64,000 bases of DNA from Candidatus Firestoneibacteriota bacterium (lineage in GTDB: Bacteria; Oederibacteriota; D2-FULL-39-29; JBBTED01): assembly GCA_038042445.1 (NCBI GenBank), contig JBBTED010000018.1, forward strand, positions 24,081 through 88,080. Reading direction: 5' to 3'. This document shows positions 1,523 through 47,191 of this stretch, one piece after another. The translations under genes were made by a program, and so were the position numbers. The notes below the pieces were generated by a model, which saw only the letters and a program-made list of their open reading frames with translations, ran no database searches and had not been told where the DNA came from. Numbering within the stretch: position 1 is the stretch's first letter; each line of letters begins with the position of its first letter.

Positions 1523-1542
1523 AATGATGGAGGGTATTTTTT

Positions 1543-3285: not shown

Positions 3286-3289
3286 TCTA

Positions 3290-4981: not shown

Positions 4982-4985
4982 AATA

Positions 4986-14500: not shown

Positions 14501-15604
14501 ATATTGAGTCCTCACAAGTTTGAAATTTATAATGCTGAATTTCATACAGAACTGCCTTTTATAATTGAGAATTCTCCACTTGATGAGAAAAAATTGCAAG
14601 GTAAAGGTATTGATACATTATCTGAAATTTCGTTCGGCAAAGATAAAATCTTAAAATTGCAGTTAGAAACCAAGTCGTATGTAGATTTAAAAACTGATTC
14701 TCAACTTAGAATGATTTTTAAAAAACCAGAAGAGAAAATAAAAAGTAGAGAAAATTTAAAAAATCTTAGATTGTTACTTGATTTGGATTTTGATGGAGAT
14801 GGTAAAAGTGACAAAAAGGCTGAATATGAAGTTCCTATTATGCTTATTCAATCTGATTATGTAATGATTTATTTTGACGTTTATGATGCAGTAAAATCTG
14901 AATTTCCCGGTAAAAAAAATTATCATTTGAATGCATTAAAAATCTCTAAAAATTCCGATATTGATAAAAAGTGGTATAATACACCAATAGTAGTGAGTCG
15001 TACATGGTTAAAAAAGAAACTAATTGATTGTAAGGATTGGAATATGAGCGCCCCAATTTTTGAATTAAATAATAAAAAGTATTATTTAAAGAATATGAAC
15101 ATGAAAAAAATGGAAAATGGAAAATTGTATTTGGAAATTGATTCTATTTATTTTCCAAAAGGGGAACATTTGTTTTCTACAATTGTTAATTCTCAATGGC
15201 AAGTGAATTTTGCAGAAATTGAACCTGTTAGTATAGATGTTGAAAATAAATGGAAAAATAGTGATAATTTGCATTTACCAAAAATCTCTTTTAAAAAGAT
15301 CAATACTACGAAATATGTTGTTGATGTTGAGACCAGTAAACCTTGGACATTGGTATTTAGTGAGGCATATCATCCAAAATGGGAAGCATTCATAAATGGT
15401 GAAACAGTATCTTCTAAAAATCATTTTGTGGTTAATGGATATGCAAATGGATTTTGTATTGACAAAACAGGCAAATATCAAATTGTTATTGAGTATGCAA
15501 CTCAGAAATATTTTAATATAGGTTTAATTGTTTCTGCTATTACATTATTAAGTTGTGTTGGCTATTTGGTCGTAAGAAAACGCAGTGGCAAGTTATTGCT
15601 ATGA
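11573..15604 (+). CDS. Very large (1343 aa) polytopic membrane protein with a YfhO-like / GT-C-like topology. It has ~400 aa of N-terminal TM helices, a large extracytoplasmic domain, and one C-terminal TM.
   Basis: This is a hydrophobicity pattern only. The C-terminal helix is IGLIVSAITLLSCVGYLVVRK. No catalytic motif was recognised. Confidence 0.45.
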   Translation: MKNLLKKINSYFFCAFIFAILLAAVLLPYYSNGNIILGGEGNYVLDFNVLLGKLNYTWQNWGVGFPATSSNYNYFIVFFFAFLQKIIPDIQVVNFIFIFILYFLPFFSALLVCRVLNLKPFLSFLISYFYVVNPFSLYYLGTWVNHWNSLVLFIIPLYFFIIFKYYEKNKLLFLFFGLNSALCAFTNANPPLMVVNQISIIISLVFTGIYKDPNFSFNKFAKKYFVVLTSFFLFNIWWILNWMSVMVDIPQMYSTGFALGWADSFKIFPNLIWRNFTFTSLFPINFSVDFVINLYSSNFSFLIVTIPIIIVIYFVMKYKSYSPVVKFLLVCILITLFLMKGILPPFGFIYKFMIIYIPFFSVFKTPIEKWGVLYLFLFILLFIILLKDNDKKKEYKFLLGLFLFYLSYVSFPFVTSKFISDYKMFDGNIATRKYIDKKEYKDLRKNLSNDPVDYRVFSLPGSLNYQIALTMPNDKFYTGMDPVLNSINRQFIAQYSNTLINNFDVLYDNISSEKFSRLLALYNIGAIVLNRDILPWFGFKEKEEMQDLENIFNNEKIYKKEQLIPGTVSLYKLQNEHFLPHIYSSASIVPIVGKNRSLSSLTYTTYLDSYPAIAFTSQVLEKGNFEKIIKDNILFVNSQLSDLALDFVDKNKSLQLLLDEQGQAEFKIKQSAIYEVLVQFKSSVSDKNDKTLILIVDNNILPLPGNCFQNQQWIRFESVSLNKGKHRIRVFFRNDRGKIESIKIVPQKMMQQILNETDVSFKNNEIQTTYLFYKDETYFQEQNDKYRWNILKPSNYKIKMILSPKAEFIKQKDTEKDTFWHLTDFNENILNADMQKHKSIGTNSSNVFSENDENIPLSVNLDWNHNNEKSEKIIQKSFKNLKLNNLPYFSMIFKKDDSVKDVAIKFFVSKYKNGFLKKSFTLENQYSNHFFISSTQTFIADIYKEAVKVLRLPVDADCFLMKIEISVIRVKKGEYKILSPHKFEIYNAEFHTELPFIIENSPLDEKKLQGKGIDTLSEISFGKDKILKLQLETKSYVDLKTDSQLRMIFKKPEEKIKSRENLKNLRLLLDLDFDGDGKSDKKAEYEVPIMLIQSDYVMIYFDVYDAVKSEFPGKKNYHLNALKISKNSDIDKKWYNTPIVVSRTWLKKKLIDCKDWNMSAPIFELNNKKYYLKNMNMKKMENGKLYLEIDSIYFPKGEHLFSTIVNSQWQVNFAEIEPVSIDVENKWKNSDNLHLPKISFKKINTTKYVVDVETSKPWTLVFSEAYHPKWEAFINGETVSSKNHFVVNGYANGFCIDKTGKYQIVIEYATQKYFNIGLIVSAITLLSCVGYLVVRKRSGKLLL

Positions 15605-16281
15605 AAAATTTTGATAAAAATATTTTTTTAAATGGCAAGTTAATTTATTTATTAATTGCTGACATAATAATTTCCATTTTTTCATGGAGTTTGGCAATTT
15701 ATTTATATAATATTTTTGGTGAAAAAACGCTGACTTTTGAAGTTCTGACTAGACATTCTTATATTATTCTAATTGTAAGCGGTGTTTTGGGATATATATT
15801 AACATTGGGAGGATTTAGAGTTGTTTCCTTAAAAAAGATGCAAGATGTTTTTTTGTATAAAAGTAGGATTTTAATTGCTATAATTTTGTATTGTAGTATT
15901 ATAGTTTTATTTTTTTGTTTTACACCTCCACATTCTATTAGGGCATGGATAGTTTTACTGGTTTATCTGACATCTATTTCTGTTTTTACTTTTATATGGC
16001 ATAAATGGGGAAAATATATATATCAATTGTTTTGTGTTACTTTCTTGGAACAGGATTTTAAAAGATATGTTCCTCCTATTTTATTTGAAAGATTTCCCAA
16101 AGGAAAAGAAAATTCCGGAAAAATTTTTATTGGAATTTTTATTGTACTGATTTTATTTTGTACATTATTGCTAATGTTTCAAAATAAGGAATTGGCTGAT
16201 TATGTAGATGATTATGCCTATTTTTCATTGGTTATCGGTGTTGGAATAGAATTATATAGGGGTAGAAAACATTCTAAATGA
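15601..16281 (+). CDS. Small polytopic membrane protein of unknown function.
   Basis: Start is assigned to the ATG at 15601, which overlaps the upstream stop (ATGA). It has several TM helices. Confidence 0.4.
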   Translation: MKNFDKNIFLNGKLIYLLIADIIISIFSWSLAIYLYNIFGEKTLTFEVLTRHSYIILIVSGVLGYILTLGGFRVVSLKKMQDVFLYKSRILIAIILYCSIIVLFFCFTPPHSIRAWIVLLVYLTSISVFTFIWHKWGKYIYQLFCVTFLEQDFKRYVPPILFERFPKGKENSGKIFIGIFIVLILFCTLLLMFQNKELADYVDDYAYFSLVIGVGIELYRGRKHSK

Positions 16282-31588: not shown

Positions 31589-33226
31589 ATGTTATCCAAA
31601 ATTCCAACAAGAATCCTAATAATTGATAATAATCAAGTCCAAAACGAATTATATTCTAAGTTAAAAAATAAAGGTTATGAAGCAATAGTTGTTTCTAATT
31701 CTGATGAAGGGATAAAAACAATAAAAGAGAACAAATTTGGTGTAATTATTATTAATACAAAGATAGTAGACAAAAAAACTATTAGCGTAATGAGAAAGAT
31801 AAAAGAAATGGACTCCAGAATAGAAAGAGTTGTAATTTGTAAGAATACTAAAGATGCAAAAATGGAATATTTTGACCGAATTATTAATAAATCTATGAAT
31901 GTTGAGGATGTGGTTGTTATAATAGAAAAAACATTAGAAAAATACCAATTGAAAGAAATGGTTGCTATGTATGAAAGAACGATGGATGTTTTTTCAACTT
32001 TAGAGTTCAATGAGTTGCCGAAGGTTATTATTGATTCTACTGTAGAAGAATTGAGAGCTGATGATGCTTCTTTAATGCTTTTTGATGATAACAAAAAACA
32101 ACTATATATTGTTGATTCAAATGGTTTATCTAAAGAAATTATAAGTGCAACCAAAATGTCTGTTGGTGAAGGAATATCCGGGTATGTAGTAAAAAATAGG
32201 AGACCACTGCTTCTAATAGATGGTTTAGAAAATGATCCAAGATTTAAACATATAAAACAAAAAGGTGTGCAAAGGAAAAATCCTATAACATCTTCTATTG
32301 TTGTGCCTTTGATAAAAAATAATAAAGTATTAGGGATTTTAAATATTAATCGTAGAAATATTATTGAGCATTTTACTGAGCATGATTTACATAAGGCAAA
32401 TACAGCTGCTTCTTTGATAAGCGTTGCAATTGAAAATGCAAAGATGCATTCTCATATTAAGAAAACCGGGGAACAGGAATTATTGAAAGTCCATGATGAA
32501 CTTCAAGAAGCATCTGAAAAGATAAGACAGATGCAGGTGCAACTCATTAGAGAAGAAAAGTTTTCCTTGCTGCATAAATTGACTTCATCTCTTGTGCATC
32601 AATTACGTACTCCTTTAAGTATAATTGATTTATCAGCTCAGTTTTTAAAAAAAGAAATTCAAGGTTCAGAAAAAATCATTTCAACTTTAAATACTATACA
32701 AAGAAATATACAACGTGCTAGTGATATTCTTCAGGATATGTTTGAGATGGTGCTTATTAAGGCTGAGACAATGAAATTTGAACGGTGTAGAATAGGAGAG
32801 ATACTGGAAAAAGCAATAGAAATAATGCAACCAAAATTAAATGGAGCAGGAGTTAATGTTAGAATGAAATGTGCAAAAGAAGAATTGCAATACATAAATA
32901 TAAATAAACATTATTTGGAGCATGTGGTTGTAAACTTAATTTCTAATTCAATAGATGCTATGTCTGAAGGTGGAGAAATAAATATTGACTTAAGTGTAGA
33001 TCCAAAAAGCGAAAAAATTGTTATGACTTTTGTTGATACAGGTAAAGGTGTTAAAGAAGAACATTTAAAAGAATTATTCACTCCTTTTTTTACAACCAAA
33101 GAAAAAGGTATAGGACTTGGGCTTTTTACAGTATTACAAATTATTGAAGCTCATCGTGGCGATATTAAAGTGAAAAGTGAATTAAATGTAGGAACAACAT
33201 TTATTATTTCCCTTCCAATTAAGTAA
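31589..33226 (+). CDS. Sensor histidine kinase with an N-terminal degenerate receiver-like domain and a GAF domain.
   Basis: The H-box is LVHQLRTPLS. The HATPase_c region has NLISNSIDAM...DTGKGV...GIGLGL. The receiver-like N-terminus lacks the canonical phosphoacceptor context. Confidence 0.75.
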   Translation: MLSKIPTRILIIDNNQVQNELYSKLKNKGYEAIVVSNSDEGIKTIKENKFGVIIINTKIVDKKTISVMRKIKEMDSRIERVVICKNTKDAKMEYFDRIINKSMNVEDVVVIIEKTLEKYQLKEMVAMYERTMDVFSTLEFNELPKVIIDSTVEELRADDASLMLFDDNKKQLYIVDSNGLSKEIISATKMSVGEGISGYVVKNRRPLLLIDGLENDPRFKHIKQKGVQRKNPITSSIVVPLIKNNKVLGILNINRRNIIEHFTEHDLHKANTAASLISVAIENAKMHSHIKKTGEQELLKVHDELQEASEKIRQMQVQLIREEKFSLLHKLTSSLVHQLRTPLSIIDLSAQFLKKEIQGSEKIISTLNTIQRNIQRASDILQDMFEMVLIKAETMKFERCRIGEILEKAIEIMQPKLNGAGVNVRMKCAKEELQYININKHYLEHVVVNLISNSIDAMSEGGEINIDLSVDPKSEKIVMTFVDTGKGVKEEHLKELFTPFFTTKEKGIGLGLFTVLQIIEAHRGDIKVKSELNVGTTFIISLPIK

Positions 33227-33233
33227 TACTTAT

Positions 33234-34844
33234 ATGCCTACCATTCTTATTGTTGATGACGAAAAAGATTTTTGTAATTCCCTTTCTGATTTACTTCAAA
33301 GTGAAGGATATGAAACTATAAGTGCATTTGGAGGCAGAGAAGCTATTTTCATATTAGAAAACAAATCTATAGATTTAGTATTTTTAGATATTAATCTTCC
33401 TGGAATGAAGGGAATTGAAGTTTTGGAGAAAATTAAAAATATAGAAGAAAGTCTACCTGTTATAATGCTTACAGGTTATGGAGAGATAAAATCAGCTGTT
33501 GACTCAATGAAAAAAGGAGCCTTCCATTACCTGACCAAACCATTTAACAATGACGAGTTGTTAATTGTGATTAAAAAAGCTATTGAAATTAAAAAATTAG
33601 GCAGAGAGGTTTATTTACTTAAAGAAAGATTACAGAAGCATGAAGAAAAAACAAAAATTATTTGTAAAAGCGAGAAAATGGAAAGGATGCTTGATGAAGT
33701 GAAACGCGTTGCACCAACGGATATGACAGTAATAATTCAAGGTGCTTCTGGTACAGGAAAAGAGTTGATTGCAAGATTTATTCATGAACTAAGTAAAAGA
33801 AAAACAGGCCCATTTATAGCGATAGATTGTGGGGCATTGCCTGAAAATTTAGTTGAGAGTGAACTTTTTGGTTATGAGAAAGGTGCTTTTACAGGCGCTG
33901 ACAAGGTGAAGCCTGGACATTTTGAACTTGCAGATGGGGGCACTTTATTTCTTGATGAAATTAGTAACTTATCACAAACTGTTCAAATGAAGTTGTTGCG
34001 TGTTTTGCAGGAAAAAAAAGTTCAACATCTTGGAGATAAAAAAGAAATAGGGGTTGATATTCGTATAGTTGTTGCAAGCAATATAAATCTTGATGAACTA
34101 ATGCCCAAAGGTCTATTTCGTGAAGATTTATATCACAGGTTAAATGAATTTACTATTAATTTGCCGTCACTCAAGGAAAGAAAAGAAGATATACTAATAT
34201 TAGTTGAACATTTTTTGAAACAAGCCAATTGTGAACTTAGCAAGAAAATCAAAGGTGTTGCTCACAATGCAATGGAAATTCTCAGTGAGTACAGTTGGCC
34301 TGGTAATGTGCGGGAGTTAAAAAATACTATTAAAAGAGCAGTATTATTAACAGAGGGAGATATAATTCTTCCGGAGCATATTAAATTGACAGATAATGCT
34401 TTGTCACATAAAATCTCCCTTAATCCCCCTTTGCTAAAGGGGGAAATTTCCTTAAAACAGATGCTTAATGCAATTGAGAGGGAATTGCTGATAAAAGCTT
34501 TAATGCAAACGAATTATCATAAAAGTAAGGCATCAAAACTTCTTGGAATAGATAGAAGTGTATTGTCTGATAAAATTAAAAAATATAAAGTATCTTCATC
34601 GAGTTTTTTAAAAAATTTCAGATATACAAACAATTTAAAAATAGGTAGTAAACATAGTCTTAAAAAAATAATTGATGATATAGAAAAACAAAAGATTACT
34701 GATGTTTTAAAAGAAGTAAATTATAAAATAGCCCAAGCATCAAAAATTCTTAAAATCACAAGAACAGATATTTATTACAAAATCAAAAAACATAATATAA
34801 CATTACCTATTGCAAATAAGTCTGTTGTCAGGCATCCTGCCTGA
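33234..34844 (+). CDS. Sigma54-dependent response regulator (NtrC family) with an unusually long C-terminus that carries two Fis-type HTH modules.
   Basis: The REC domain has DLVFLDINLPGMKG. The AAA+ domain has GASGTGKE, the GAFTGA motif in ESELFGYEKGAFTGA, and RVLQE. There are two C-terminal HTH-like segments. Confidence 0.85.
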   Translation: MPTILIVDDEKDFCNSLSDLLQSEGYETISAFGGREAIFILENKSIDLVFLDINLPGMKGIEVLEKIKNIEESLPVIMLTGYGEIKSAVDSMKKGAFHYLTKPFNNDELLIVIKKAIEIKKLGREVYLLKERLQKHEEKTKIICKSEKMERMLDEVKRVAPTDMTVIIQGASGTGKELIARFIHELSKRKTGPFIAIDCGALPENLVESELFGYEKGAFTGADKVKPGHFELADGGTLFLDEISNLSQTVQMKLLRVLQEKKVQHLGDKKEIGVDIRIVVASNINLDELMPKGLFREDLYHRLNEFTINLPSLKERKEDILILVEHFLKQANCELSKKIKGVAHNAMEILSEYSWPGNVRELKNTIKRAVLLTEGDIILPEHIKLTDNALSHKISLNPPLLKGEISLKQMLNAIERELLIKALMQTNYHKSKASKLLGIDRSVLSDKIKKYKVSSSSFLKNFRYTNNLKIGSKHSLKKIIDDIEKQKITDVLKEVNYKIAQASKILKITRTDIYYKIKKHNITLPIANKSVVRHPA

Positions 34845-34901
34845 CAAATTATATGATTATGAATATTTCATGTCCATATTGTGTCAAATATAACCACATA
34901 G

Positions 34902-34940
34902 CTGTAAAATTTTACAGCATTTAGCTGTATTATTTTACAT
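34902..34940. promoter_or_regulatory. Tandem palindromic upstream activator sites (candidate enhancer): CTGTAAAATTTTACAG and CTGTATTATTTTACAT. Both have the form TGTA-N6-TACA, with centres 23 bp apart.
   Basis: The sites lie about 85 and 108 bp upstream of the sigma54 -24 element, directly downstream of the NtrC-like gene. Confidence 0.55.
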
Positions 34941-35015: not shown

Positions 35016-35031
35016 TGGCACGAAAATTGCA
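35016..35031 (+). promoter_or_regulatory. Sigma54 (-24/-12) promoter, TGGCACGaaaaTTGCA.
   Basis: It matches the consensus TGGCACG-N4-TTGCW perfectly. It lies upstream of the OMP/giant-adhesin genes. Confidence 0.7.
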
Positions 35032-35044
35032 TTATATAATAATC

Positions 35045-36457
35045 ATGGTAAAAATTACAAAATGGGGTAGGGGTAGAGACGTATTGCAATGCTTTTCTAC
35101 ATTTATAATTTTATCATTTTTTTCTTCAATTGGTTATGCTGATTTTGAGGATCTTGGTGTTGGGGCAAGATCATTTGGAATGGGTAATGCTTTTTCTGCA
35201 TTGGCAAATGATGCGAGTGCGATTTATTATAATCCAGCAGGACTTACTAATATTAAAAATGCTCAAATAATGACTGCTTATGACAGACTTTACCTTGGAC
35301 TTTCTGATAAAAGTATTTTAGGGGATGGATTTGTATCGGTTGTTTCTCCTCTTGATGAGGTTACTGGTATTGGAATAAGTTATGTAAATTTTCATCTTGT
35401 TAATTATTATCAGGAACATACGTTTGTTCTTTCTTATGGCAATAAGATATTTTCTCAGTTGTCTGCCGGTATAAATGTTAAAGGTTTATCCAGAGGTTTA
35501 AGTGAAGATATCTATACAAAAGTTGACCCATTATTTTTGGAAAAAGGGTATACAAAAACAAATTTTAGTTTTGATACAGGTTTGCTCTATAGACCATTTC
35601 CAAGTTATTCATTTGCACTTACAGCTTATAATATAAATCAACCGGATTTAGGTTTAAAAGACAAAGATATTGTTCCTATGAGTTTAAAATTAGGTTTTGC
35701 GTATCGTTATCATGCAAGCGATTTTGTTGTAGATTTTGCATATACTAATAAAGATTGGGATGTATATTTTGGAACTGAGAACTGGTTTTTTGAAAGATGT
35801 TTTGCACTAAGAGGCGGTGTTAAAACTGGAAGCAGAGCAGACAATGATTTGAGTGTTGGAATCGGATATAATTCTGGAAACATACAGTTTGATTATGCAG
35901 TTCAATATCCATTAAGTGGAATAAAAAATACTTTTGGTTCACATCGCATTTCTTTTGGAGTGAAATTTGGAGATGTGCTTCCGGAGTCAGATGATGAATT
36001 CGGATATATTCCTATGGTACCAAAAGAAGAAATTGAAAAAATCCAAAAAGAAGCAGAAGAGTCTGCACAAATGGTTCAAAAACTAAAAGAGGAGATTGAA
36101 AACTATAAAAAGAATTTAGAAGCCCTATCTGCAGAAAATGAAAAAAATAAAGAAAAAGAAGCAGAAGAATTAACAAAAAAAATTGAGCAATATAATAAAG
36201 AAATGACAAAAGCTCTAAAATCTGAAGTAGATGCAAGAGAAAAATTAAATAAAATAACTGTAAAAAATACAACATCTATAAAGGTAGATAAAAATACTTA
36301 TGTAGTTGAAAAAGGTGATACTTTAAAATCTATAGCAATAAAGTTATATAATGATGAATCTCGGTGGGTTAGTATTTATAATCTTAACAAAGATAGAATT
36401 AAGCAAGGGATTGTTGAGTCTGGGCAGATTTTGATTTTACCTGAGGAGAGGAAATGA
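35045..36457 (+). CDS. Outer-membrane beta-barrel protein (FadL/PorV-like N-terminal signature) with a C-terminal coiled coil and a LysM domain.
   Basis: It has a signal peptide. The motif VGARSFGMGNAFSALANDASAIYYNPAGL resembles the FadL-family N-terminal block (GRA..G.A..A..A....NPA). A KE-rich coiled coil follows. The LysM is YVVEKGDTLKSIA...ILILP. The start at 35045 was chosen because the track's TTG start overlaps the promoter. Confidence 0.6.
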   Translation: MVKITKWGRGRDVLQCFSTFIILSFFSSIGYADFEDLGVGARSFGMGNAFSALANDASAIYYNPAGLTNIKNAQIMTAYDRLYLGLSDKSILGDGFVSVVSPLDEVTGIGISYVNFHLVNYYQEHTFVLSYGNKIFSQLSAGINVKGLSRGLSEDIYTKVDPLFLEKGYTKTNFSFDTGLLYRPFPSYSFALTAYNINQPDLGLKDKDIVPMSLKLGFAYRYHASDFVVDFAYTNKDWDVYFGTENWFFERCFALRGGVKTGSRADNDLSVGIGYNSGNIQFDYAVQYPLSGIKNTFGSHRISFGVKFGDVLPESDDEFGYIPMVPKEEIEKIQKEAEESAQMVQKLKEEIENYKKNLEALSAENEKNKEKEAEELTKKIEQYNKEMTKALKSEVDAREKLNKITVKNTTSIKVDKNTYVVEKGDTLKSIAIKLYNDESRWVSIYNLNKDRIKQGIVESGQILILPEERK

Positions 36458-36501
36458 ATAACAGGTTAGCGGTTCTAAAAATATCCAATGTTATTGTAGC
36501 C

Positions 36502-36564
36502 GCAGAGCGAAGCTCTGCTAAAAAAGTAGTTGCAAGGTTAAAGACAGCAAAGCTTACGCTTTGC
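36502..36564 (+). promoter_or_regulatory. Two intercistronic hairpins, GCAGAGC-GAA-GCTCTGC and GCAAAGC-TTAC-GCTTTGC, between the OMP gene and the giant-protein gene.
   Basis: Both have perfect 7-bp stems. They lie upstream of the probable start of the giant CDS at 36589. Confidence 0.4.
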
Positions 36565-36588
36565 AGCTACATAAATCATATCAAATAT

Positions 36589-39500
36589 ATGAGTTTGTTG
36601 AATTTTAGAATGGTTAATCTATTACCTATTGCTTTTATTTTACTATTAACGGGCCAGGTTTTTGCAACAAGCAGAACAATGAGCGGTACCGTATACACGG
36701 ATGAGGGAGTGACTAATATTGGTTCTGGCAAAAATATGGCAATATCAGTTAATGGTGGTGTTGCAACTACTTTTGTAACAGGAGCAAATGGTGTTTATTC
36801 AGTAGCTGTAAATGTTACTACTAATGACAAAATATGTGTTTACTTAGATAATGAAACAGAAAAAGCTACTTTAGTTACTATAATTCTTGATGCTGACTTA
36901 AGTGGATTTAATTTGTACCAAAATCATTTAATTTTGCGTAAAGAAACAGGTGGTGCTGGAATTAACAATACTGATTTATCAGGTGCAGATAATGGTGATG
37001 CTGATATTCTTTATAATGTAAGTGGAGCTAATTTAACTGTTAATGCAGGAGTTGAATTGTATGTTTGGACAGGACATACTTATGCGTCTGATGGTAATAT
37101 TAATGCTGATGCAATAAAAATTAACGGGATTTTTACTAATACGACTGCAGGTTCAATAATTACTTGTGATGATGCAGGAAGTATTACTGTGAATGGAACT
37201 TGGACATTAACTGGAGGTGTAGGCAATTTAATTTCTTTAAAGTCTGATTTAGCAGGAAGTCAGTTTGATGTAATTAATAACGGTACAGTAAATTTGAGTT
37301 ATGTTGATTTAAAAGATTGTAATGCTTCTTCTTCGATTATTGTGACTGATGGAAATGATAGTGGAAATAACACATACGTTATTTTTCAGCCTGCTGTATA
37401 TGATGGTGCAGTGTTAACAGGAGATGGTGCTGGAAGTAATTCAGTATCTATTGATTCAATAAGTGGTGTTACAACAGGTGTTCAGATACTTTGCTTTAAA
37501 ATCAGTAATCCTGCGAGTACGGGAAATCAGGCAATAAAAATAGATCAGTTCACAATACATTTAGATGGCTCAAGTACAGCAGTAATTACTAATATTGCAG
37601 AAATTGCATTATCAGGTGCAGTAACTTCAACAGTTACTACTCCTGTTTCTAATGATATTACCTTTGGGACTCCTAATGTAGGTTTTGATGGTGGCATATT
37701 GAGTGTTTCTAATAATACTACTTCTTCTGATATTGTTGTGAAAATTAAATTAAAAACTACTTTAACTGCTACAGAAACTCAATTCTGGAAATTCAATGTT
37801 GATGATGATGATGTTTCAGAGTCAAATTTGACATCAGATATGATGGGTACAACTGGAGTAGATATAGCTGGTTCAAGTTGTGCATTATCAATTGTTGCTA
37901 CGAAGTTAGTATGGACAACGCTTCCTGCAGACACCAGAATAGTAGACGTAAGTGATGAAGTAGTGAGTGGGTTAGTATGGCAGACACAGCCTGTAGTAAA
38001 GGCAGTGGATGCAAATAATAATGTAGATATAGATTCAGTAGAAACAGTAACATTAAGTTTGGTAGGTGGAGCAGGAACATTTGCTGGAACATTAACAGAA
38101 GGATGTGTAAGTGGAGTGGCAAATTTTGTTGGTAATGGAATAAAGTATACAGTAAGTGGAAATAATGATGGTGAAGGATTTGTCCTAAGAGCAAGTGGAG
38201 GTGCATTAACAACAGCAGATACAAGTGGATTATCAGCAGATGTAGTAGCAACGAAATTAGTATGGACTACAGTTCCAGCAGATAGCAGGAGAGTAGATGT
38301 AAGTGATGAAGTAGTAAGTGGATTAGCATTTGAGACACAGCCAGTAGTAAAGCCAGAGGATGATGATAATAAAGTAGATGCAGATTCAACGCAAATAGTA
38401 ACATTAAGTTTAATAAGTGGAGTAGGAACATTTGCAGGAACATTAACTAAAGCTTGTGTTCTTGGGGAAGCAAATTTCAGTAGCAATGGAGTAAAGTATA
38501 CAGTATCAGGTAATAATGAGGGGGAAACATTTGCAATAAGAGCAAGTGGAGGTAGTTTAACAGCAGCAGATACTGGTTTATTATCATCAGATATAGTAGC
38601 AAGTCAGTTGGTGTGGACACAATCAGCAAGTCATAGTGGAGTACCGAATGGAGACATAATAAGTGGAGTAGTATTTAATACACAGCCAAAAGTGGAGACA
38701 AGAGATGCAGATAATAAGTTGGATACTGATTATGTGAGTTCAGTAGTTTTAAGTGAGACAGGTGCTGGTTTTTTAAGTGGCACAACATCAGTAGCAGCAG
38801 TAAGTGGAGTGGTAACATATACTGGGATAGCATATAATGTGAATGCGGACCAGGAGAGTTTCACATTAAAAGCGGACAGTGGAAGTTTAACACAAGGGTC
38901 AGATACAAGTAAGGTGGCAGATGTAGTAGCAACGAAATTATCTTTTACTGTCCAGCCACAAGAGACAGGGCAAGCAGCAAATACAATAGTATCAGGTAAT
39001 GTATTTGACACACAGTCTCAAGTAGAAGCAAGGAATAATAGTGATAAAAAGGATGTAAATTTTATAGATACAGTTACAGTAGTTGAAACAGGAACAGGTA
39101 GTTTAAGTGGAACAAGTTCAGTAGCAGCAGTGGCAGGTGTAGTAACATTCACTAATTTAGTATATACAGCGGTTGTAGACAATGAGATGTTTAAGTTAAG
39201 TGCAGATGATACTCCTGGAGGGCAGGAAGGAAATTTAACCGGAACATTTGAGTCTGCGAATACAACAGCGAATGTCCTTGCAACAAAATTAGTGTTTGAT
39301 GTCCAACCTTCATCAAGTGTAGTTATGAATATTGATGTGGTAATTCATCCTGTCCTTAAAGCTTTAGATGCAAATAATACAATAGATGTTAATAATACTG
39401 ATACACTTACGATTAGTGCAGTATTATCAGCAGATTTGTCACCTGCCCCAGGAATTCTTACCATAACACCTTCTTCTGGTAGTAATATGATAAGTGGTAG

Positions 39501-42387
39501 TTGGACATCTACACTATTAAGACATAATACTCCAAATTTAATTAAGATAAAAGTTATTGGAAGTACTGTAGTTGGGCCTTATTATTCTAATGATATAAAT
39601 GTACTTTTAGATACAACTTTACCATCTTCAATTATGGATCTTAGTGCTTCTACAGGAGCTCTTGAAGGAGAAATAAATCTAACATGGACAGCACCAGGTG
39701 ATGAGGGAAATAGTGGGACGGTTACAGGTTATCTTGTCCGATATTCAACAAGTCCGATAAATAATCAAACTGATTTTGATAATGCCACTACTTATACACA
39801 AAGTTGGTCACCTTTATCGTATGGTAATACTGAAAATCAAACTATTACTATGCCAGTAAATGGTGTTACTTATTATATTGCTATTAAAGGTTTTGATGAG
39901 GTGCCGAATTATGCTCCATCATTTAATACTACAGGCAATAGTGCAGTATCACAAATAGATAGTGTGGCACCGTCTAACATAACTAATTTAGTTGTTACTA
40001 CAGGTGCTTTGAAGAGTCAGCTTAATCTAAACTGGACATCTGTTGGTGATAATGGAAATAGCGGGACAGCAACAAGTTATATTGTCCGATATTCTACTGC
40101 TCCTATTCTAAATCAGAATGATTTTAATAATGCATCAATTTATGTTCAAAGTTGGACTCCTTTAGCAACAGGAAATGCTGAAAGTAAAGTTATTTCTGGG
40201 CTTCAATCAGGTGTTCTTTATTATGTTGCTATTGAAGCAAAAGATGAGGCTGGAAATCAAGCAGGTCTTTCTAATACAGCCAATGCTAATGCTACGACTC
40301 AGATTGATGTGGCACCACCTGCTGCTATTATAAATTTAGCTGCAACTACTGGTTTGCAACATACTCAGATAAATTTAACATGGACAGCTACAGGTGATGA
40401 CCAGGATGTAGGAACAGCATCAAGATATATTGTCCGATATTCAACAAGTGCGATAAGTAATCAAACAGATTTTAATAATGCTAATACTTATGTGCAGAAT
40501 TGGGTTCCATTATCAGCAGGTAATCTAGAAACCAAGATACTTGCAGGATTAACAGCTGGTGTTACTTACTATATTGCTATTGAAGCAGTAGATATCGAAA
40601 GTAAGCAGGGAGCTATTTCAAATACTACAGGTAATAGTGCAGTTGCTAAAAATGATATTACTGTTCCTAGCAATATTGGTGATTTAGTAGCTACTACTGG
40701 TTCAATTGAGGGAGAAATTAATTTGACATGGACGGCATCAGGTGATGATGGAAATATTGGGACAGCTACGGGATATATTGTCCGATATTCAACAAGTGCG
40801 ATAAGTAATCAAACAGATTTTAATAATGCTAATACTTATGTTCAGAGTTGGGTTCCTTTATCAGCAGGTAATGTGGAAACCAAGACACTTACAGGATTAA
40901 CACCTGGTGTTACTTACTATATTGCAATTGAAACAATAGACGAAAAACCAAATCAAGCAATTGATTTTAATAAAACTGGAAATAGTGCAATGGCTCAATT
41001 GGATGTTACCAAACCGTCTGCTATTACAAATTTATCTACTTTTATTAGTGAAAATGATGAAAAAGGAGCAATTCATCTGACATGGACAGCATCAGGTGAT
41101 GATGGAAATATTGGCACAGCTACAGGATATCTTGTTCGATATTCAACAATCGCGATAACTAATCAAACAGATTTTGATAATGCAACTACTTATCAAAATA
41201 CTTGGGTTTCTTTGCCTACAGGTCAGAAAGAAGAAAAAACTATAACTGGTTTTTTGCCGGGTGTCCAGTATTACATTGCTATTGAATCAGTAGATGATAG
41301 AGGGAATACATCTGATTTATCTAATATTGCTGAAGGGACTCCACGAATTGATTTGATTCCACCATTAGAGCCAATAGGTATAAAATGTGATTTTAATGCT
41401 TCTGGTTATTTTGTTATTAACTGGAAAGCACCAAATAGAAATGAAGATGATAGTGTTCTAAATGATTTATCTGAATATCATATTTACCGTACGGCTAATA
41501 TTGATGGTGAATATGTATTGAAAAGTTCTGTATCTAAAGATACATTGAATTGGGTAGATATGGAAGTAACAACTACTACATCTGAAACATATTATTATAT
41601 CATAAAGGCAGTAGATTATTTCGGTAATGAGAGTAAATTATCAATGCAAATAAGTAATATAAATAAAGAAATTAGTATTGCTTTTAATGATGAAATTACT
41701 TTAAAATTACCTATAGAGATGAACAAATTGATTTATGGAGAATCTAATAAATATAAAGAAGACATTCGTTTTCAGTTAAAAAAGAAAATTGATGATGGAA
41801 AAAGAGTTTTAGGTAGTTATGAAATAAAAGCGATAAAGGAAAAAAATGGTGCAGAAATTAATAATTTCACTTTTGACAAACCAATTGAAATTGCTTTTAA
41901 ATATAGAAATAATAGTAGAGCACAAATGTTCAAAGCTTCTTTTATTCAAGAGGACTTTAAACCTACGGTTTTTGTGCATAATGGAGTTGAGTGGGTGAAA
42001 TTAGGTGGAAAAGTGGATAATAATTTAGAAAAAGTTGTTATAAAAACATCTAAGTTAGGAAATTTTATGCTTAAAGCTTCTGCTTCTTTAACTGAATTTA
42101 CTATTGTTCAGATTACTCCTTCTAAAATATTTACACCAAATGGAGATGGACAGTGGGATGTAATTGAGTTCTACTTTGAAAATCCACGTGATACTTATGT
42201 TAATTCAACAAAAATTTTTGATATTACCGGAGCTGAAGTTTGCGATATGCAATTAAGCAGTACAGGTAATTCTTATGTTTGGGATGGAAAAAATAGAAAT
42301 GGAGAAATTGTTTCTAATGGAGTTTATATTTACCAGATAGAAGTTGAAGGTAAAGTTTTAAATGGCACTATAATAGTAGCAAAGTGA
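36589..42387 (+). CDS. Giant secreted surface/adhesin-like protein of about 1930 aa. In order it has a signal peptide, a G/N/T-rich beta-helix-like N-terminal region, Ig-like repeats, about 7 FN3-like ~116-aa repeats, and a C-terminal T9SS type-B-like (gliding motility-associated) sorting domain.
   Basis: The signal peptide is MSLLNFRMVNLLPIAFILLLTGQVFA. The FN3-like repeats read LTWTA.GDDGN.GTATGY.VRYSTS.I.NQTDFNNA. The C-terminus FTPNGDGQWD...WDGKNRNGEIVSNGVYIYQIEV resembles the FxPNGDGxND...WDG...GVY.Y type-B CTD signature. Confidence 0.7.
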   Translation: MSLLNFRMVNLLPIAFILLLTGQVFATSRTMSGTVYTDEGVTNIGSGKNMAISVNGGVATTFVTGANGVYSVAVNVTTNDKICVYLDNETEKATLVTIILDADLSGFNLYQNHLILRKETGGAGINNTDLSGADNGDADILYNVSGANLTVNAGVELYVWTGHTYASDGNINADAIKINGIFTNTTAGSIITCDDAGSITVNGTWTLTGGVGNLISLKSDLAGSQFDVINNGTVNLSYVDLKDCNASSSIIVTDGNDSGNNTYVIFQPAVYDGAVLTGDGAGSNSVSIDSISGVTTGVQILCFKISNPASTGNQAIKIDQFTIHLDGSSTAVITNIAEIALSGAVTSTVTTPVSNDITFGTPNVGFDGGILSVSNNTTSSDIVVKIKLKTTLTATETQFWKFNVDDDDVSESNLTSDMMGTTGVDIAGSSCALSIVATKLVWTTLPADTRIVDVSDEVVSGLVWQTQPVVKAVDANNNVDIDSVETVTLSLVGGAGTFAGTLTEGCVSGVANFVGNGIKYTVSGNNDGEGFVLRASGGALTTADTSGLSADVVATKLVWTTVPADSRRVDVSDEVVSGLAFETQPVVKPEDDDNKVDADSTQIVTLSLISGVGTFAGTLTKACVLGEANFSSNGVKYTVSGNNEGETFAIRASGGSLTAADTGLLSSDIVASQLVWTQSASHSGVPNGDIISGVVFNTQPKVETRDADNKLDTDYVSSVVLSETGAGFLSGTTSVAAVSGVVTYTGIAYNVNADQESFTLKADSGSLTQGSDTSKVADVVATKLSFTVQPQETGQAANTIVSGNVFDTQSQVEARNNSDKKDVNFIDTVTVVETGTGSLSGTSSVAAVAGVVTFTNLVYTAVVDNEMFKLSADDTPGGQEGNLTGTFESANTTANVLATKLVFDVQPSSSVVMNIDVVIHPVLKALDANNTIDVNNTDTLTISAVLSADLSPAPGILTITPSSGSNMISGSWTSTLLRHNTPNLIKIKVIGSTVVGPYYSNDINVLLDTTLPSSIMDLSASTGALEGEINLTWTAPGDEGNSGTVTGYLVRYSTSPINNQTDFDNATTYTQSWSPLSYGNTENQTITMPVNGVTYYIAIKGFDEVPNYAPSFNTTGNSAVSQIDSVAPSNITNLVVTTGALKSQLNLNWTSVGDNGNSGTATSYIVRYSTAPILNQNDFNNASIYVQSWTPLATGNAESKVISGLQSGVLYYVAIEAKDEAGNQAGLSNTANANATTQIDVAPPAAIINLAATTGLQHTQINLTWTATGDDQDVGTASRYIVRYSTSAISNQTDFNNANTYVQNWVPLSAGNLETKILAGLTAGVTYYIAIEAVDIESKQGAISNTTGNSAVAKNDITVPSNIGDLVATTGSIEGEINLTWTASGDDGNIGTATGYIVRYSTSAISNQTDFNNANTYVQSWVPLSAGNVETKTLTGLTPGVTYYIAIETIDEKPNQAIDFNKTGNSAMAQLDVTKPSAITNLSTFISENDEKGAIHLTWTASGDDGNIGTATGYLVRYSTIAITNQTDFDNATTYQNTWVSLPTGQKEEKTITGFLPGVQYYIAIESVDDRGNTSDLSNIAEGTPRIDLIPPLEPIGIKCDFNASGYFVINWKAPNRNEDDSVLNDLSEYHIYRTANIDGEYVLKSSVSKDTLNWVDMEVTTTTSETYYYIIKAVDYFGNESKLSMQISNINKEISIAFNDEITLKLPIEMNKLIYGESNKYKEDIRFQLKKKIDDGKRVLGSYEIKAIKEKNGAEINNFTFDKPIEIAFKYRNNSRAQMFKASFIQEDFKPTVFVHNGVEWVKLGGKVDNNLEKVVIKTSKLGNFMLKASASLTEFTIVQITPSKIFTPNGDGQWDVIEFYFENPRDTYVNSTKIFDITGAEVCDMQLSSTGNSYVWDGKNRNGEIVSNGVYIYQIEVEGKVLNGTIIVAK

Positions 42388-42400: not shown

Positions 42401-42515
42401 TTCCGCATGTAGTAAGCGGGAATCCAGTGTCTTTTATTGGTAGTAGTACGCTTAGGCGGACGAAGTATGTAGTTGCCGATTTATCGGCATATTGTTTTAG
42501 GAGGGGGATTTTAAA

Positions 42516-44396
42516 ATGTCTGATTTTAAATGGAAGTTTTCTGAACATCTGAAATTTGTGCCAAGATTATCAGGTGTAGAAAAAAACAAGATGGAAAAGA
42601 CTACTGATATACAAAATACGATTAAACAATTGAGATTGAGTGAATTGCAAATGTTATATATAGAAAAAGTAGAGGAATCACGCAAGTTAATGGATAAAAC
42701 AGAAGACTTAGTTAAGTTGATAGAAGAAAAAAATAATAACTGGAATGACAAATTAGAATCATTAAGACAAAAAGAAAGTGAAATAAGTTCTTTGTCTGAA
42801 AGGTTAGAAACAAAAGAGAAAATTGCAGATAAATTTGTTGATGAGGTGAAATCTAAAAAAGATAAATTGGAGATAAATGCAGAAGAAATAAATAGATATA
42901 ATAAAGAATTAGTATCGTTACTGGTAGAATTAAAAGGGAAACAGTATAGTAAAGAATTTGAGCAAATAGATAAACTTAATAAAGAATTGCGTCTATTAGC
43001 TGAGGAAAGAGATATAGCAGTTACGAGATGCGAAGAAAAAACACAGGAAGTTGAACGTGTTAGATGGGAGTTGCAGTCTTTAGCTATACAGTTTGAAGAG
43101 AGGGAGAAGAATTGGAATGAGAAAATTAAGATGTATGAGCCTGATAAGGAAAAGTTAGAGAAGCAGAATGCAGATAAAGGACAGCAGATAGATAGATTAA
43201 AAAAAGAATTGCAGGCATTGATAGAGGAGAGAAATATACTAAATACCAATTACGAAGAAAAAATACAGGAAGTTAAACGGCTTAAAGATGAGTTGCATTT
43301 TTTAAACATACGGTTTGAAGAGAAAGAGAATAATTGGAGTGAGAATATTAAGTTATTTAGGCAGGAGCAGGTAGAATTAAACAGGCAGAATGCAGATAAA
43401 GGACAACAAATAGATAGATTTAATAAAAAATTACAGGCATTAGCAGAAGAGAAAAATACAGTAAGTACGAAATATGAAGAAAAAGTAAAAGAAATAGATA
43501 GATTAAATAGTGAATTCAAAAAAACACTTGAAAGATTTAGGGAAAATGAAAAAGTAGGAGAAAAAAATAGTGAAGAGTTAAGGGATAAGAAAAGGGAATT
43601 AACATTAAAGGAACAAGAAATAAATCAACTTAAAGAAAAATTAAAGATATTAGAGGGAAAGAAAGATGTGGATGGGAAAATAAATGATACAAACGTTCAA
43701 GAAAAAACTAAACAAATTGAAGAAATGTTAAAAGTGGAAAGAGTAGTTATGAAAGAATTAATTTTTGGTGTTGTTCACCAAATACGTAATCCATTGGGAA
43801 TAATTAGTACAAATACTCAATTCCTTTTGAAAAAGAAAAAATATAAAAAGGGTGAAGACAAATTATTGCAAGTGATTTTTAATACTGTTGAAAGTTTTAA
43901 TAGGAAAATTGATATATTTCTTGAACTTGCCAATCCAATAGAATTGTTTACACAGGTTGTTTCTTTAAGTAAGGTTTTAGATGGGATTTTTTCAATTGTT
44001 GAAGAAAAATGTAAAATGCAAAATATTAAGTTAATAAAAGGTTATCCTGCAGACTTACCTAAAGCAGAGGTTGACGCTAATAAATTGAGTCAGGCATTGC
44101 TTAATATTTTCTCCAATTCTTTGTTTGCTACTCCTGAGGGAGGTACTATTGAAGTAAATACACATTTGGATTTTGGAAAAAAAGAAGTTGCGATTAGATT
44201 TGTAGATAATGGTAGTGGAATTTCTCAAGTGTATATTGATCAAGTAGGGATACCATTTTTTACCACAAAGAAAGACGCATTAGGATTGGGAATTTTTTCT
44301 GCAAAACGTATTATAATTTCTCATAAAGGGCATATTAAAATCGATACCAATTCTGACAAAGGAATAACTGTAACTGTATTTTTGCCATATTGTTAA
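42516..44396 (+). CDS. Cytoplasmic histidine kinase with an N-terminal coiled coil (~400 aa, internally repetitive).
   Basis: It has no TM segments. The H-box is VVHQIRNPLGIIS. The HATPase_c region has DNGSGI...GLGLGI. Confidence 0.75.
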   Translation: MSDFKWKFSEHLKFVPRLSGVEKNKMEKTTDIQNTIKQLRLSELQMLYIEKVEESRKLMDKTEDLVKLIEEKNNNWNDKLESLRQKESEISSLSERLETKEKIADKFVDEVKSKKDKLEINAEEINRYNKELVSLLVELKGKQYSKEFEQIDKLNKELRLLAEERDIAVTRCEEKTQEVERVRWELQSLAIQFEEREKNWNEKIKMYEPDKEKLEKQNADKGQQIDRLKKELQALIEERNILNTNYEEKIQEVKRLKDELHFLNIRFEEKENNWSENIKLFRQEQVELNRQNADKGQQIDRFNKKLQALAEEKNTVSTKYEEKVKEIDRLNSEFKKTLERFRENEKVGEKNSEELRDKKRELTLKEQEINQLKEKLKILEGKKDVDGKINDTNVQEKTKQIEEMLKVERVVMKELIFGVVHQIRNPLGIISTNTQFLLKKKKYKKGEDKLLQVIFNTVESFNRKIDIFLELANPIELFTQVVSLSKVLDGIFSIVEEKCKMQNIKLIKGYPADLPKAEVDANKLSQALLNIFSNSLFATPEGGTIEVNTHLDFGKKEVAIRFVDNGSGISQVYIDQVGIPFFTTKKDALGLGIFSAKRIIISHKGHIKIDTNSDKGITVTVFLPYC

Positions 44397-45709: not shown

Positions 45710-47191
45710 ATGATCCAGTGTCCAAAATGCAAAACAGAAAATAATGACATAGCCAAATTTTGCCAAAACTGTGGAAGAAAGCTAGGACATTCTTCATCAG
45801 GGGTTTTCTTAAAAACAGTTATTGCGATAATATTGGTTTTGGCTATAGGATTTGGGGCGTACTATTTTAATGCGTCTAAAACTTTGCCCAGTCGTGCTGA
45901 TTTAATGATTAAATCAACGGAAAAAAAATCAAAAGAAATAGAAATAATTGGGATAAAGGAGGTTTTTCAGGAACAATTTAATGAGGGAAATAAATTGTTG
46001 CGGGAAGCTAAGGAATTATATTATGCCGGTAAATATACAAAGGTATTGAAAACAGCAAAAAGAGCTAATGAAGTTATTGATAAAGTAAAATTAGGAATAA
46101 GAGATTTTGTTGATATTGAATATGGGCGATTATTTGTGGAAGGAGAAGAACAGATACAAAGTGGTAACTACGAAAAAGCACTTGAATGTTTTGAGAAAGC
46201 TATGGAATGTAGGAAAGGCGATATTCCATCTACAGGAAAAATAGAGCATTGTAAAAATAATCTTTATGAAATGTATTTTAAAAAAGGGCAGGAATATGTT
46301 CCGAATTTATTATGGGATGAGGCAATAAATGCGTATCAAATAGCGCTGAAATATAAACCTGATGACAAACAAGCAGAGGATGAATTAAAAATTGTGCAAG
46401 CAAAGAAGGAAGAAGCATATAAAATAGAGGAAGCAAAAGCAAAGGCAATAGCAGCAGCAGAGAAGAAGAAATATGAAAATATGGTATACATACCAGCAGG
46501 AGAATTTGAAATGGGAAGCAATGATTGTGTTGATGAGAAACCAGTTCATAGAGTATATCTTGACGGATACTATATAGACAAATACAAAGTAACGAATGAG
46601 CAATATGCGAAATTTTTGAATGAATGGGGAAAGACAATAGACAGGAATGGCAATGAAATGATTGACATAGAAAATAGCGCAATATCAAACGAAGGAGAAA
46701 AATTTGTTATTCAATCTGGCTATGAGAAATACCCTGTTATATATATAAGTTGGTATGGAGCCAATCAATATGCGAAGTGGTGTGGTAAAAGATTACCAAC
46801 AGAAGCAGAATGGGAGAAGGCATGTAGTGCTGGAAGTAAAACAAAATATTGTTTTGGGGATGATGAAAATAAACTTGGTGAATATGCATGGTATAAAGAT
46901 AATTCAGATGGACGGACACATCCAGTAGGAAAGAAGAAACCAAACAAATGGGGATTATATGATATGCATGGTAATGTATGGGAATGGTGTTCTGATTGGT
47001 ATGATGAAAAATATTATGAAAAGAGCCCTAAGGATAATCCTAAAGGATCTAACACGGGGACTAGTAAAGTTCTTCGTGGTGGTACGTGGGATTTCATTGC
47101 TAATGATTGTCGGTCATCTTATCGCGGCAGCGGCACGCTGGTCAGCTGGGGCGATCTTGTAGGTTTCCGTTGCGTGCGAGTAGCGAAATAA
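45710..47191 (+). CDS. Membrane-anchored protein with an N-terminal zinc ribbon, a TM helix, TPR/coiled-coil regions, and a C-terminal FGE-sulfatase (SUMF1-like) domain.
   Basis: It has CPKCKTEN...CQNCG, then a TM, then the FGE-domain blocks GSNDCVDEKPVHRVYLDGYYIDKYKVTN, HGNVWEWCSDWY and RGGTWDF...GFRCV. Only one Cys is present where the canonical FGE has a Cys pair. Confidence 0.7.
   Translation: MIQCPKCKTENNDIAKFCQNCGRKLGHSSSGVFLKTVIAIILVLAIGFGAYYFNASKTLPSRADLMIKSTEKKSKEIEIIGIKEVFQEQFNEGNKLLREAKELYYAGKYTKVLKTAKRANEVIDKVKLGIRDFVDIEYGRLFVEGEEQIQSGNYEKALECFEKAMECRKGDIPSTGKIEHCKNNLYEMYFKKGQEYVPNLLWDEAINAYQIALKYKPDDKQAEDELKIVQAKKEEAYKIEEAKAKAIAAAEKKKYENMVYIPAGEFEMGSNDCVDEKPVHRVYLDGYYIDKYKVTNEQYAKFLNEWGKTIDRNGNEMIDIENSAISNEGEKFVIQSGYEKYPVIYISWYGANQYAKWCGKRLPTEAEWEKACSAGSKTKYCFGDDENKLGEYAWYKDNSDGRTHPVGKKKPNKWGLYDMHGNVWEWCSDWYDEKYYEKSPKDNPKGSNTGTSKVLRGGTWDFIANDCRSSYRGSGTLVSWGDLVGFRCVRVAK

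Follow-up and report, generated by a model that had tools for sequence, protein, structure and literature searches.

INTRODUCTION

Cargo proteins of the T9SS (type IX secretion system) with a type B C-terminal sorting domain (CTD) require cognate PorP/SprF shuttles for their secretion, and in Flavobacterium the genes for the two partners are linked (PMC12618676). In Porphyromonas gingivalis, both the type B protein PG1035 and the lipoprotein PorE bind to PorP (PMC9143113); PorE has a TPR, a beta-propeller, a CRD and an OmpA_C domain, the last of which binds peptidoglycan (PMC9143113, PMC7192894). In Flavobacterium johnsoniae, 6 out of 10 porP-like genes adjoin porE-like genes, and it was postulated that PorP–PorE serves as the wall anchor of non-mobile type B proteins, whereas the mobile SprB, which is bound by SprF, uses SprF alone (PMC9143113). 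SprF carries a Cys-X-Cys motif in its periplasmic C-terminal tail, by which it is bonded to the moving GldK track (PMC12635249). Here we describe a 64-kb stretch of DNA (the window) from a Candidatus Firestonebacteria metagenome-assembled genome (MAG) obtained from Hainich groundwater, in which a gene for a 470-aa outer-membrane barrel protein with a C-terminal helical stalk and a LysM domain is directly followed by a gene for a giant surface protein ending in a type-B-like CTD.

An earlier note, made from the letters of this DNA alone, had read the 470-aa protein as a FadL/PorV-like barrel extended by a coiled coil and a LysM domain, and had taken it for a possible new anchoring or adaptor variant beside its cargo gene. 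Our analysis confirms that observation and supports the interpretation: the description that fits the protein best is that of a carrier barrel of the PorP/SprF–PorV superfamily, equipped with a helical stalk and a LysM domain, and of a cognate partner of the adjacent adhesin. PorP/SprF carriers and the PorP–PorE link to the wall were already known; the LysM-fused carrier variant, with its predicted anchoring to the wall, is new.

RESULTS AND DISCUSSION

Architecture of the barrel protein

The barrel open reading frame (ORF) extends on the + strand from ATG 35045 to the stop codon ending at 36457. A longer frame from TTG 35015 was rejected, because this start overlaps the perfect sigma-54 element T-TGGCAC-GAAAA-TTGCA, and a start inside that promoter is not credible. 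The deposited protein MEK6645409.1 ("hypothetical protein AABY84_01865"), from contigs of 88-97 kb from Hainich groundwater, is an exact copy. We built an AlphaFold2 model from 43 homologues, and a profile of the family; the model has a mean predicted local distance difference test score (pLDDT) of 90.6. It shows 14 beta strands between aa 74 and 307, preceded by a helical segment (aa 41-69) that forms a short plug and holds the block GAR..GMG....A.D.....YNPAGL. This N-terminal block (GARSFGMGNAF..ALANDASAIYYNPAGL in the window protein), whose parallel to the FadL signature had been pointed out before, is the most conserved part of a family of at least 117 homologues; R42, N63, P64 and A65 are invariant across the 43 sequences, and the junction YA–xFEDLG is conserved in the alignment at the site of signal-peptide cleavage.

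The KE-rich coiled coil of about 90 aa and the LysM domain proposed earlier reappear in the model as a two-helix stalk and a beta-alpha-alpha-beta LysM fold at aa 418-464 (Table 1). The stalk helices comprise aa 327-363 and 369-407, and 45% of the stretch is K, E, D or R. The window protein alone falls just short of the Pfam threshold for LysM (PF01476; 18.6 bits versus 20.9); 22 of the 43 homologues match LysM, with a best E of 1.7e-17, and the family profile retrieves Kbp and a phage protein, both LysM proteins, from the PDB at E 1e-5. We accepted the LysM assignment on the homologue matches, the family profile and the modeled fold together. In a 14-stranded outer-membrane barrel both the N and the C terminus are periplasmic, and therefore the stalk and the LysM domain would also be located in the periplasm. 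As a spacer, the modeled stalk could form a hairpin with about 5.5 nm per helix or, in an extended or oligomeric state, a rod about 11 nm long; homologues with a LysM-sized tail have stalks of 65 to 259 aa. An Amidase_3 gene at 60548-61252 of the window indicates that peptidoglycan is present in the host organism.

The barrel is FadL/PorV-like, with PorV as the best structural match of the model. In a Foldseek search of the PDB, which returned 1,093 matches, the first two ranks were taken by 8gl6_F and 6h3i_F, the chains of the type A carrier PorV from Flavobacterium SprA translocon complexes (E 5e-12 and 6.6e-12, target TM-score 0.64-0.65, root-mean-square deviation (rmsd) 4.0-4.5 Å). The proteins FadL, TodX and TbuX also matched at E 1e-9 to 1e-11, but with an rmsd of 9-10 Å, so that the predicted structure, which the earlier note had wanted as a check, contains the barrel and places it nearer to PorV than to FadL. 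Sequence comparisons point in the same direction. The NCBIfam PorV/PorQ family NF033709 covers the whole barrel (E 6.6e-18, model positions 8-326 of 326) at a score below its cut-off, and the family profile matches PorV in the PDB at E 3.7e-7. Among the 43 homologues, Pfam matches were obtained to TraF_2 (26), Toluene_X (17), PorP_SprF (9, best E 5.6e-12), UPF0164 (8) and PorV (2). Two relatives with about 33% identity, from loci L027 and L033, exceed the PF11751 (PorP_SprF) threshold of 22.3 over the full model, with 38.5 and 38.9 bits.

Pairing of barrel genes with CTD genes

To place the window protein among its relatives, we collected 80 loci from species-representative genomes in a search seeded with a 14-sequence alignment, and three more loci by contig look-ups, together 1.135 Mb. 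The host taxa are mostly Elusimicrobiota; more distant barrel–CTD pairs occur in Spirochaetota, Dependentiae, Desantisbacteria, WOR-3, Zixibacteria, Calditrichaeota, Ignavibacteriales, Marinimicrobia and Cloacimonadota. A CTD hidden Markov model (HMM), seeded with the window CTD sequence and iterated over these loci, found 94 ORFs (95 with a duplicate copy in L001), with the domain nearly always at the extreme C-terminus and a background density of one such ORF per about 12 kb. Across 84 related loci, 69 out of 93 barrel ORFs (74%) have a gene with a terminal CTD within 350 nt on the same strand, compared with about 3% expected for random placement. The CTD gene is upstream of the barrel gene in 64 of these pairs, and the two genes overlap by 4 nt in 21. 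Two or three tandem pairs are present in each of the loci L008, L013, L023 and L048.

The pairing of cargo and barrel genes across relatives is thus statistically overwhelming, and this linkage is the same genetic signature as that of type B cargo and PorP/SprF shuttles in Flavobacterium (PMC12618676). Together with the presence of several paralogous pairs per genome, it indicates that barrel and CTD protein are cognate partners, and that the barrel is not a housekeeping tether. The expectation that type B cargo would be paired with a dedicated PorP/SprF-like barrel, some relatives of which pass PorP_SprF, was therefore borne out. The parallel with Bacteroidota on which it was based holds for the pairing of cargo and barrel, but not for the host, which is a Firestonebacteria MAG. 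The co-occurrence of barrel–LysM fusions with CTD genes in other genomes, which the earlier note had wanted examined, was also found: orthologues of the giant protein stand beside barrel–LysM genes in seven loci (L004, L006, L010, L012, L013, L015 and L016).

In many Elusimicrobia loci, tiny ORFs of 120-185 aa, consisting of a signal-like N-terminus and a CTD, are located directly upstream of TPR-type barrel genes (Table 1), often with a large CTD protein nearby as well. By analogy, these small proteins may act as "caps", in the way of PG1035 on PorP.

The giant neighbor and its CTD

The giant gene, as called, shares four nucleotides with the barrel gene, whose stop codon overlaps its start at 36454-36457. 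In keeping with the earlier description of the adjacent gene, its product ends in a type-B-like CTD: CHU_C (PF13585, threshold 27) is matched with 29.5 bits by the whole protein and with 36.7 bits by the isolated 115-aa domain, while TIGR04131 (cut-off 35) gives 22.8 bits for the whole protein and 28.8 for the isolated CTD. Among 30 CTDs of the family, 28 match CHU_C and 24 match TIGR04131. An Elusimicrobia orthologue, also encoded beside a barrel–LysM gene, has a near-identical C-terminal end, ...GVYIYQIEAEGKVINGTIMVVR.

The called start, ATG 36454, is preceded by a strong Shine–Dalgarno sequence (GAGGAGAGG), and the signal peptide begins 45 codons downstream, at M46 (ATG 36589). Two perfect 7-bp hairpins (36503-36519 and 36547-36564) lie between the two ATG codons. 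The interval 36454-36589 is either an extended segment in front of the signal peptide or an intercistronic region for regulation or processing. The 351-nt tandem repeats of the gene occupy 37900-38602 and 40378-41193. In two other assemblies from the same site (L002, 5055-8309, and L003), the same barrel gene is accompanied by a giant version of 1,084 aa instead of 1,977 aa, which stems either from collapse of the repeats during assembly or from differences in repeat number between strains.

Exchange of the C-terminal tail within the family

The position C-terminal to the barrel is a site of domain swapping across the family. More than 120 extra residues are present in 63 of the 93 barrels, most commonly as TPR arrays. 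One subclade carries one or two LysM domains (17 ORFs within the loci), and in single cases the tail is an OmpA domain (P0037) or, in another protein, FN3. The closest homologue of the window protein, P0002, has a tail of TPR and LysM. The only cysteines of the window protein are at aa 16 and 252, none of them after the barrel, and the region after the barrel is likewise free of cysteine in 41 out of 43 family members.

A search of 1.84 billion representative proteins gave 413 clusters at E <= 1e-30. Since the alignment runs through the LysM domain in at least 50 of the best 150 clusters, proteins with the order barrel, stalk, LysM constitute a populous, uncharacterised family. The fusion, which the earlier note had called not standardly described for T9SS partners, is not unique: it belongs to a large metagenomic family, and PorP–PorE is its equivalent in trans (PMC9143113).

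Comparison with described systems

The window protein resembles SprF and PorP in its 14-stranded FadL-family barrel, in the linkage of its gene, often with translational coupling, to a gene for a type-B-like CTD protein, with several such pairs per genome, and in a periplasmic C-terminal tail that would connect it to an internal structure; some of its relatives pass PF11751. It differs from them in remaining below the PF11751 threshold itself and in the lack of a Cys-X-Cys motif in the tail. Whereas the tail of SprF bonds to the moving GldK track, a helical stalk with LysM would bind the static wall. The host, moreover, belongs to Firestonebacteria, which have no known T9SS, and the gene order at the window locus is inverted. 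With PorP–PorE–PG1035, and with the porP-like/porE-like gene pairs of F. johnsoniae, it would share the principle of a barrel that holds a type B CTD protein and is bridged to peptidoglycan, and the TPR, OmpA-like and LysM domains fused to barrels of the family overlap the domain set of PorE. However, the bridge in the window protein would be covalent, within one polypeptide, whereas PorE is a separate lipoprotein; it has LysM in place of OmpA_C and a helical stalk in place of the propeller and CRD.

PorV (LptO) is the best match in structure and among curated sequence families, with shared motifs in the N-terminal plug and the C-terminal strand. PorV, however, is a general type A shuttle, unlinked to cargo genes, devoid of a periplasmic extension and about 100 residues larger, and the window protein stays below the NF033709 cut-off and has no Pfam PorV match. 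Inverse autotransporters (intimin/invasin, type Ve) also combine a periplasmic LysM domain, an outer-membrane barrel and a long rod of Ig-like repeats. They are single polypeptides with a 12-stranded barrel, which has no homology to that of the window protein, and an N-terminal LysM domain; in the window, by contrast, the passenger is a separate protein that would be recognized through its CTD. OmpM/SlpA proteins share with the window protein an outer-membrane barrel, an alpha-helical stalk and a wall-binding domain, but their domain order is opposite, their wall-binding domain is SLH instead of LysM, and their barrel is a 16-stranded trimeric porin with no cargo partner.

Proposed function and alternative explanations

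We propose that the window protein is probably a member of the PorV/PorP/SprF superfamily that serves the neighboring giant adhesin as dedicated carrier and anchor. The adhesin would be exported by Sec and cross the outer membrane through a T9SS-like translocon; its type-B-like CTD would be captured by the 14-stranded barrel and remain bound to it, and the Ig/FN3 rod would thereby be displayed at the cell surface. At the periplasmic C-terminus of the barrel, the stalk and the LysM domain take the position of the Cys-X-Cys motif of SprF. Binding of LysM to peptidoglycan would fix the adhesin–carrier complex to the sacculus, making it immobile and load-bearing. In this arrangement one polypeptide, a fused equivalent of PorP and PorE, would do the job of the PorP barrel and the peptidoglycan-binding lipoprotein. 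The fold, the order of the domains, the type-B-like CTD, the gene pairing, the promoter sequence and the exchange of tails among relatives were observed here, while the CTD–barrel contact, the peptidoglycan contact and the export route are inferred.

Several observations weigh against this proposal. None of the curated thresholds for PorP_SprF, PorV and FadL is passed by the window protein: it reaches 65.4 bits against the cut-off of 90 for NF033709, gives no match at E <= 0.1 to Pfam PorP_SprF (PF11751) or Pfam PorV (PF19572), and scores 15 bits against 29.7 (E 0.009) for Toluene_X/FadL (PF03349), where the match is confined to the N-terminal motif at aa 45-78. The 30 family CTDs are matched also by the type A model (27/30) and by FlgD_ig (21/30); the earlier assignment to type B is consistent with CHU_C above its threshold, but because of these further matches it is the best fit and not an exclusive one. 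The barrel-first order of the window is the minority arrangement, found in 5 of the 69 pairs. Finally, none of the T9SS core genes SprA/Sov, PorK/L/M/N and PorU is present within the window, and in the TXSScan survey complete T9SS occurred only in Bacteroidetes (PMC4793230).

The last two points also speak for a display system that is independent of a T9SS translocon, in which the barrel, perhaps with the machinery for beta-barrel assembly (BAM), exports and retains its cognate CTD protein, in the manner of a split inverse autotransporter such as intimin/invasin. Pairs of this kind are widespread in phyla without a reported T9SS (Elusimicrobia, Firestonebacteria, Spirochaetes and Dependentiae), our literature search found no link of T9SS to Elusimicrobia or Firestonebacteria, and in being tightly coupled in translation the gene pair resembles two-partner systems. 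We nevertheless regard such self-contained export as unlikely. A plugged 14-stranded barrel is narrow for the export of a 200-kDa protein, and homologous barrels in the only studied systems are SprA-dependent carriers (PMC9143113, PMC12618676). Divergent homologues of SprA or PorKLMN could escape the published profiles, and the same pairs occur in phyla of the FCB group (Ignavibacteriales, Zixibacteria, Calditrichaeota and Cloacimonadota), to which reviews extend T9SS as the FCB superphylum. The adhesin may thus cross the outer membrane either by a divergent, undetected translocon or by an autonomous mechanism. A wider form of the latter, in which the barrel–CTD pair with a conserved kinase and a propeller regulator (see below) is a complete T9SS-independent display and anchoring system of Firestonebacteria and Elusimicrobiota, controlled by phosphorylation across the inner membrane, and represents a minimal or ancestral carrier-mediated secretion from which the type B branch of Bacteroidota was later recruited, is a speculative and rather doubtful idea.

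That the protein is a general tether of the outer membrane to peptidoglycan, or a porin, similar to OmpA or OmpM and without a specific tie to the adhesin, seems improbable to us. The order barrel, stalk, LysM does mirror that of OmpM (SLH, coiled coil, barrel), OmpM1 (8bys) is among the fold matches, the relative P0037 carries an OmpA domain, and a reinterpretation of PorE likewise makes it a general tether (PMC12204202). Beside the match to PorV, however, that to the OmpM fold is weak (TM-score 0.29-0.40); the operon is predicted to be regulated by sigma-54 and not constitutive; and the 74% linkage to CTD genes, with several paralogous pairs per genome, points to cognate partners. Least probable of all, and very unlikely indeed, is a FadL-type transporter of hydrophobic substrates (long-chain fatty acids or aromatics) with an incidental LysM tail. 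The Toluene_X match of the N-terminal motif and the strong Foldseek matches to FadL, TodX and TbuX favor it, but the FadL superpositions are poor beside that of PorV, FadL exceeds the window barrel in length by about 100 residues, no genes of fatty-acid or aromatic catabolism are nearby, and the conserved partner is a CTD protein.

If the window protein is the dedicated carrier and anchor that we propose, the repeated fusion of PorP-like barrels to TPR, OmpA and LysM domains would provide "Rosetta stone" support for the anchoring of non-mobile cargo to the wall via PorP–PorE. The barrel's periplasmic C-terminal tail would then appear as a general connector slot, occupied by a disulfide to the track in SprF and by a wall-binding domain here. 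The abundance of type-B-like pairs in phyla thought to be free of T9SS (Elusimicrobiota, Firestonebacteria, Spirochaetota and Dependentiae) suggests either that T9SS is far wider and more divergent than assumed, or that carrier barrels use another export route. The proposal also offers a concrete function for a large family of "hypothetical proteins" and for giant adhesins in groundwater bacteria about which little is known.

Regulation and the conserved gene module

The sequence predicts that the barrel gene and the giant gene form a sigma-54-dependent operon under the control of the adjacent kinase/activator pair (Table 1). The 200-nt intergenic region between the activator gene and the barrel gene contains two tandem palindromes, which are probably activator-binding sites, and the predicted promoter. 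Only four matches to TGGCA[CT]N5TTGC[AT] on the same strand were found in the 1.135 Mb of related loci. Orthologues of the activator (E 1e-145 and 1e-149) are encoded directly upstream of barrel–LysM genes in L007 and L009, with orthologues of the histidine kinase in the same position as in the window; in L007, TGGCATAAGAATTGC precedes the barrel gene by 43 nt. In two Elusimicrobia loci with the order kinase, activator, barrel–LysM, giant gene, TGGCAT-N5-TTGC or a weaker sequence is present before the barrel gene. The strict pattern gave no promoter upstream of modules in which the giant gene comes first, so that sigma-54 control seems specific to loci with an upstream activator. As only 14 nt lie between the end of the promoter and the ATG, the transcript would have almost no leader, or else an internal TTG (codon 14) may be the start of translation; both starts give the same mature barrel protein.

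Table 1. Positions of the features in the window and of tiny CTD ORFs in related loci (locus given with the coordinates)
Feature	Position	Strand	Remarks
Sensor histidine kinase	31589..33226	+	Receiver-like, GAF, HisKA, HATPase (Pfam); partner upstream of sigma-54 activator
Sigma-54-dependent NtrC-type response regulator	33234..34844	+	Sigma54_activat 230 bits, Response_reg, HTH_8
Two tandem 18-nt palindromes, TAGCTGTAAAATTTTACA and TAGCTGTATTATTTTACA	34899..34939	+	Spacing 23 nt; ~80-115 nt upstream of sigma-54 element
Predicted sigma-54 promoter, TGGCACGAAAATTGCA, TGGCAC-N5-TTGCA	35016..35031	+	Exact -24/-12 consensus; 14 nt before ATG
Signal peptide (predicted)	35045..35140	+	aa 1-32; cleavage predicted after GYA; hydrophobic helix aa 9-25 in model
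Plugged 14-stranded FadL/PorV/PorP-type outer-membrane barrel	35141..35974	+	aa 33-310; AlphaFold2 model, Foldseek, NCBIfam, family profile
KE-rich alpha-helical stalk, predicted periplasmic	35990..36265	+	aa 316-407; helices of 37 and 39 residues; pLDDT 85-97
LysM peptidoglycan-binding domain	36296..36442	+	aa 418-466; Pfam (sub-threshold), AlphaFold2 model, homologues, family profile
Giant Ig/FN3-repeat surface protein	36454..42387	+	1,977 aa as called; 5 FN3 matches; 351-nt tandem repeats
Type-B-like C-terminal sorting domain	42055..42387	+	aa 1868-1977; CHU_C above Pfam threshold
Terminator-like hairpin, then T-rich tail	42474..42489	+	End of two-gene operon (predicted)
Histidine kinase with long coiled-coil N-terminus	42516..44396	+	Homologues follow barrel–LysM genes in at least 10 loci
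Response regulator, 407 aa	44444..45667	+	Receiver, one transmembrane helix, periplasmic 5-bladed beta-propeller; module member
Tiny CTD ORFs	L025 9399-9833; L029 4631-4993; L036 2507-2905; L037 9525-9923
Tiny CTD ORFs	L041 5220-5645; L043 9502-9921; L046 9507-9923; L052 7600-7995

Downstream of the operon follow the second histidine kinase and the 407-aa regulator, which at least 10 loci keep beside their barrel–LysM genes (E 1e-60 to 1e-85); for the regulator, such orthologues are found in Elusimicrobia. The regulator has a strongly hydrophobic transmembrane helix at aa ~164-190, which is present in 46 out of 49 family members, and the nearest solved folds of its propeller are bacterial and plant glutaminyl cyclases (3mbr and 2iwa; 11-13% identity). 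It is unusual for a regulator to be anchored in the membrane and to have its output domain in the periplasm. Its identification as a PorX-like protein was rejected, as the match is limited to the receiver domain.

Other genes of the window and labels of related genomes

Two genes past the adhesin operon, the + strand gene at 45710-47191 encodes a protein with a zinc ribbon, TPR and an FGE-sulfatase domain, the fold family of GldK, PorK and GldJ. We rejected it as a GldK/PorK or GldJ relative: it scores 98 bits against the GldK cut-off of 350, with EgtB matching equally, it begins with the zinc ribbon and has no lipoprotein signal, and it is not kept near the module elsewhere. Other genes of the window encode phosphotransferase system components, a glycoside hydrolase of family GH57, enzymes of the S-adenosylmethionine (SAM) cycle, ABC permeases, radical-SAM enzymes and similar proteins.

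Several MAGs labelled "Clostridia bacterium" (L011, L014, L019-L021 and L023) contain close barrel homologues (<=45% identity) with CTD partners; these labels are probably taxonomic mis-assignments of genomes similar to those of Firestonebacteria or Elusimicrobia.

At one end of the window, 167-6698 and 11573-16281 hold four tandem paralogous ORFs (450-580 aa), a 1,343-aa ORF and a 242-aa ORF, none of which matches Pfam or NCBIfam. Two B12-binding radical-SAM enzymes, a methyltransferase and a DUF2079 membrane protein are interleaved with them, and the GC content of this 18-kb stretch is 25-28%, compared with 30-39% in the rest of the window.

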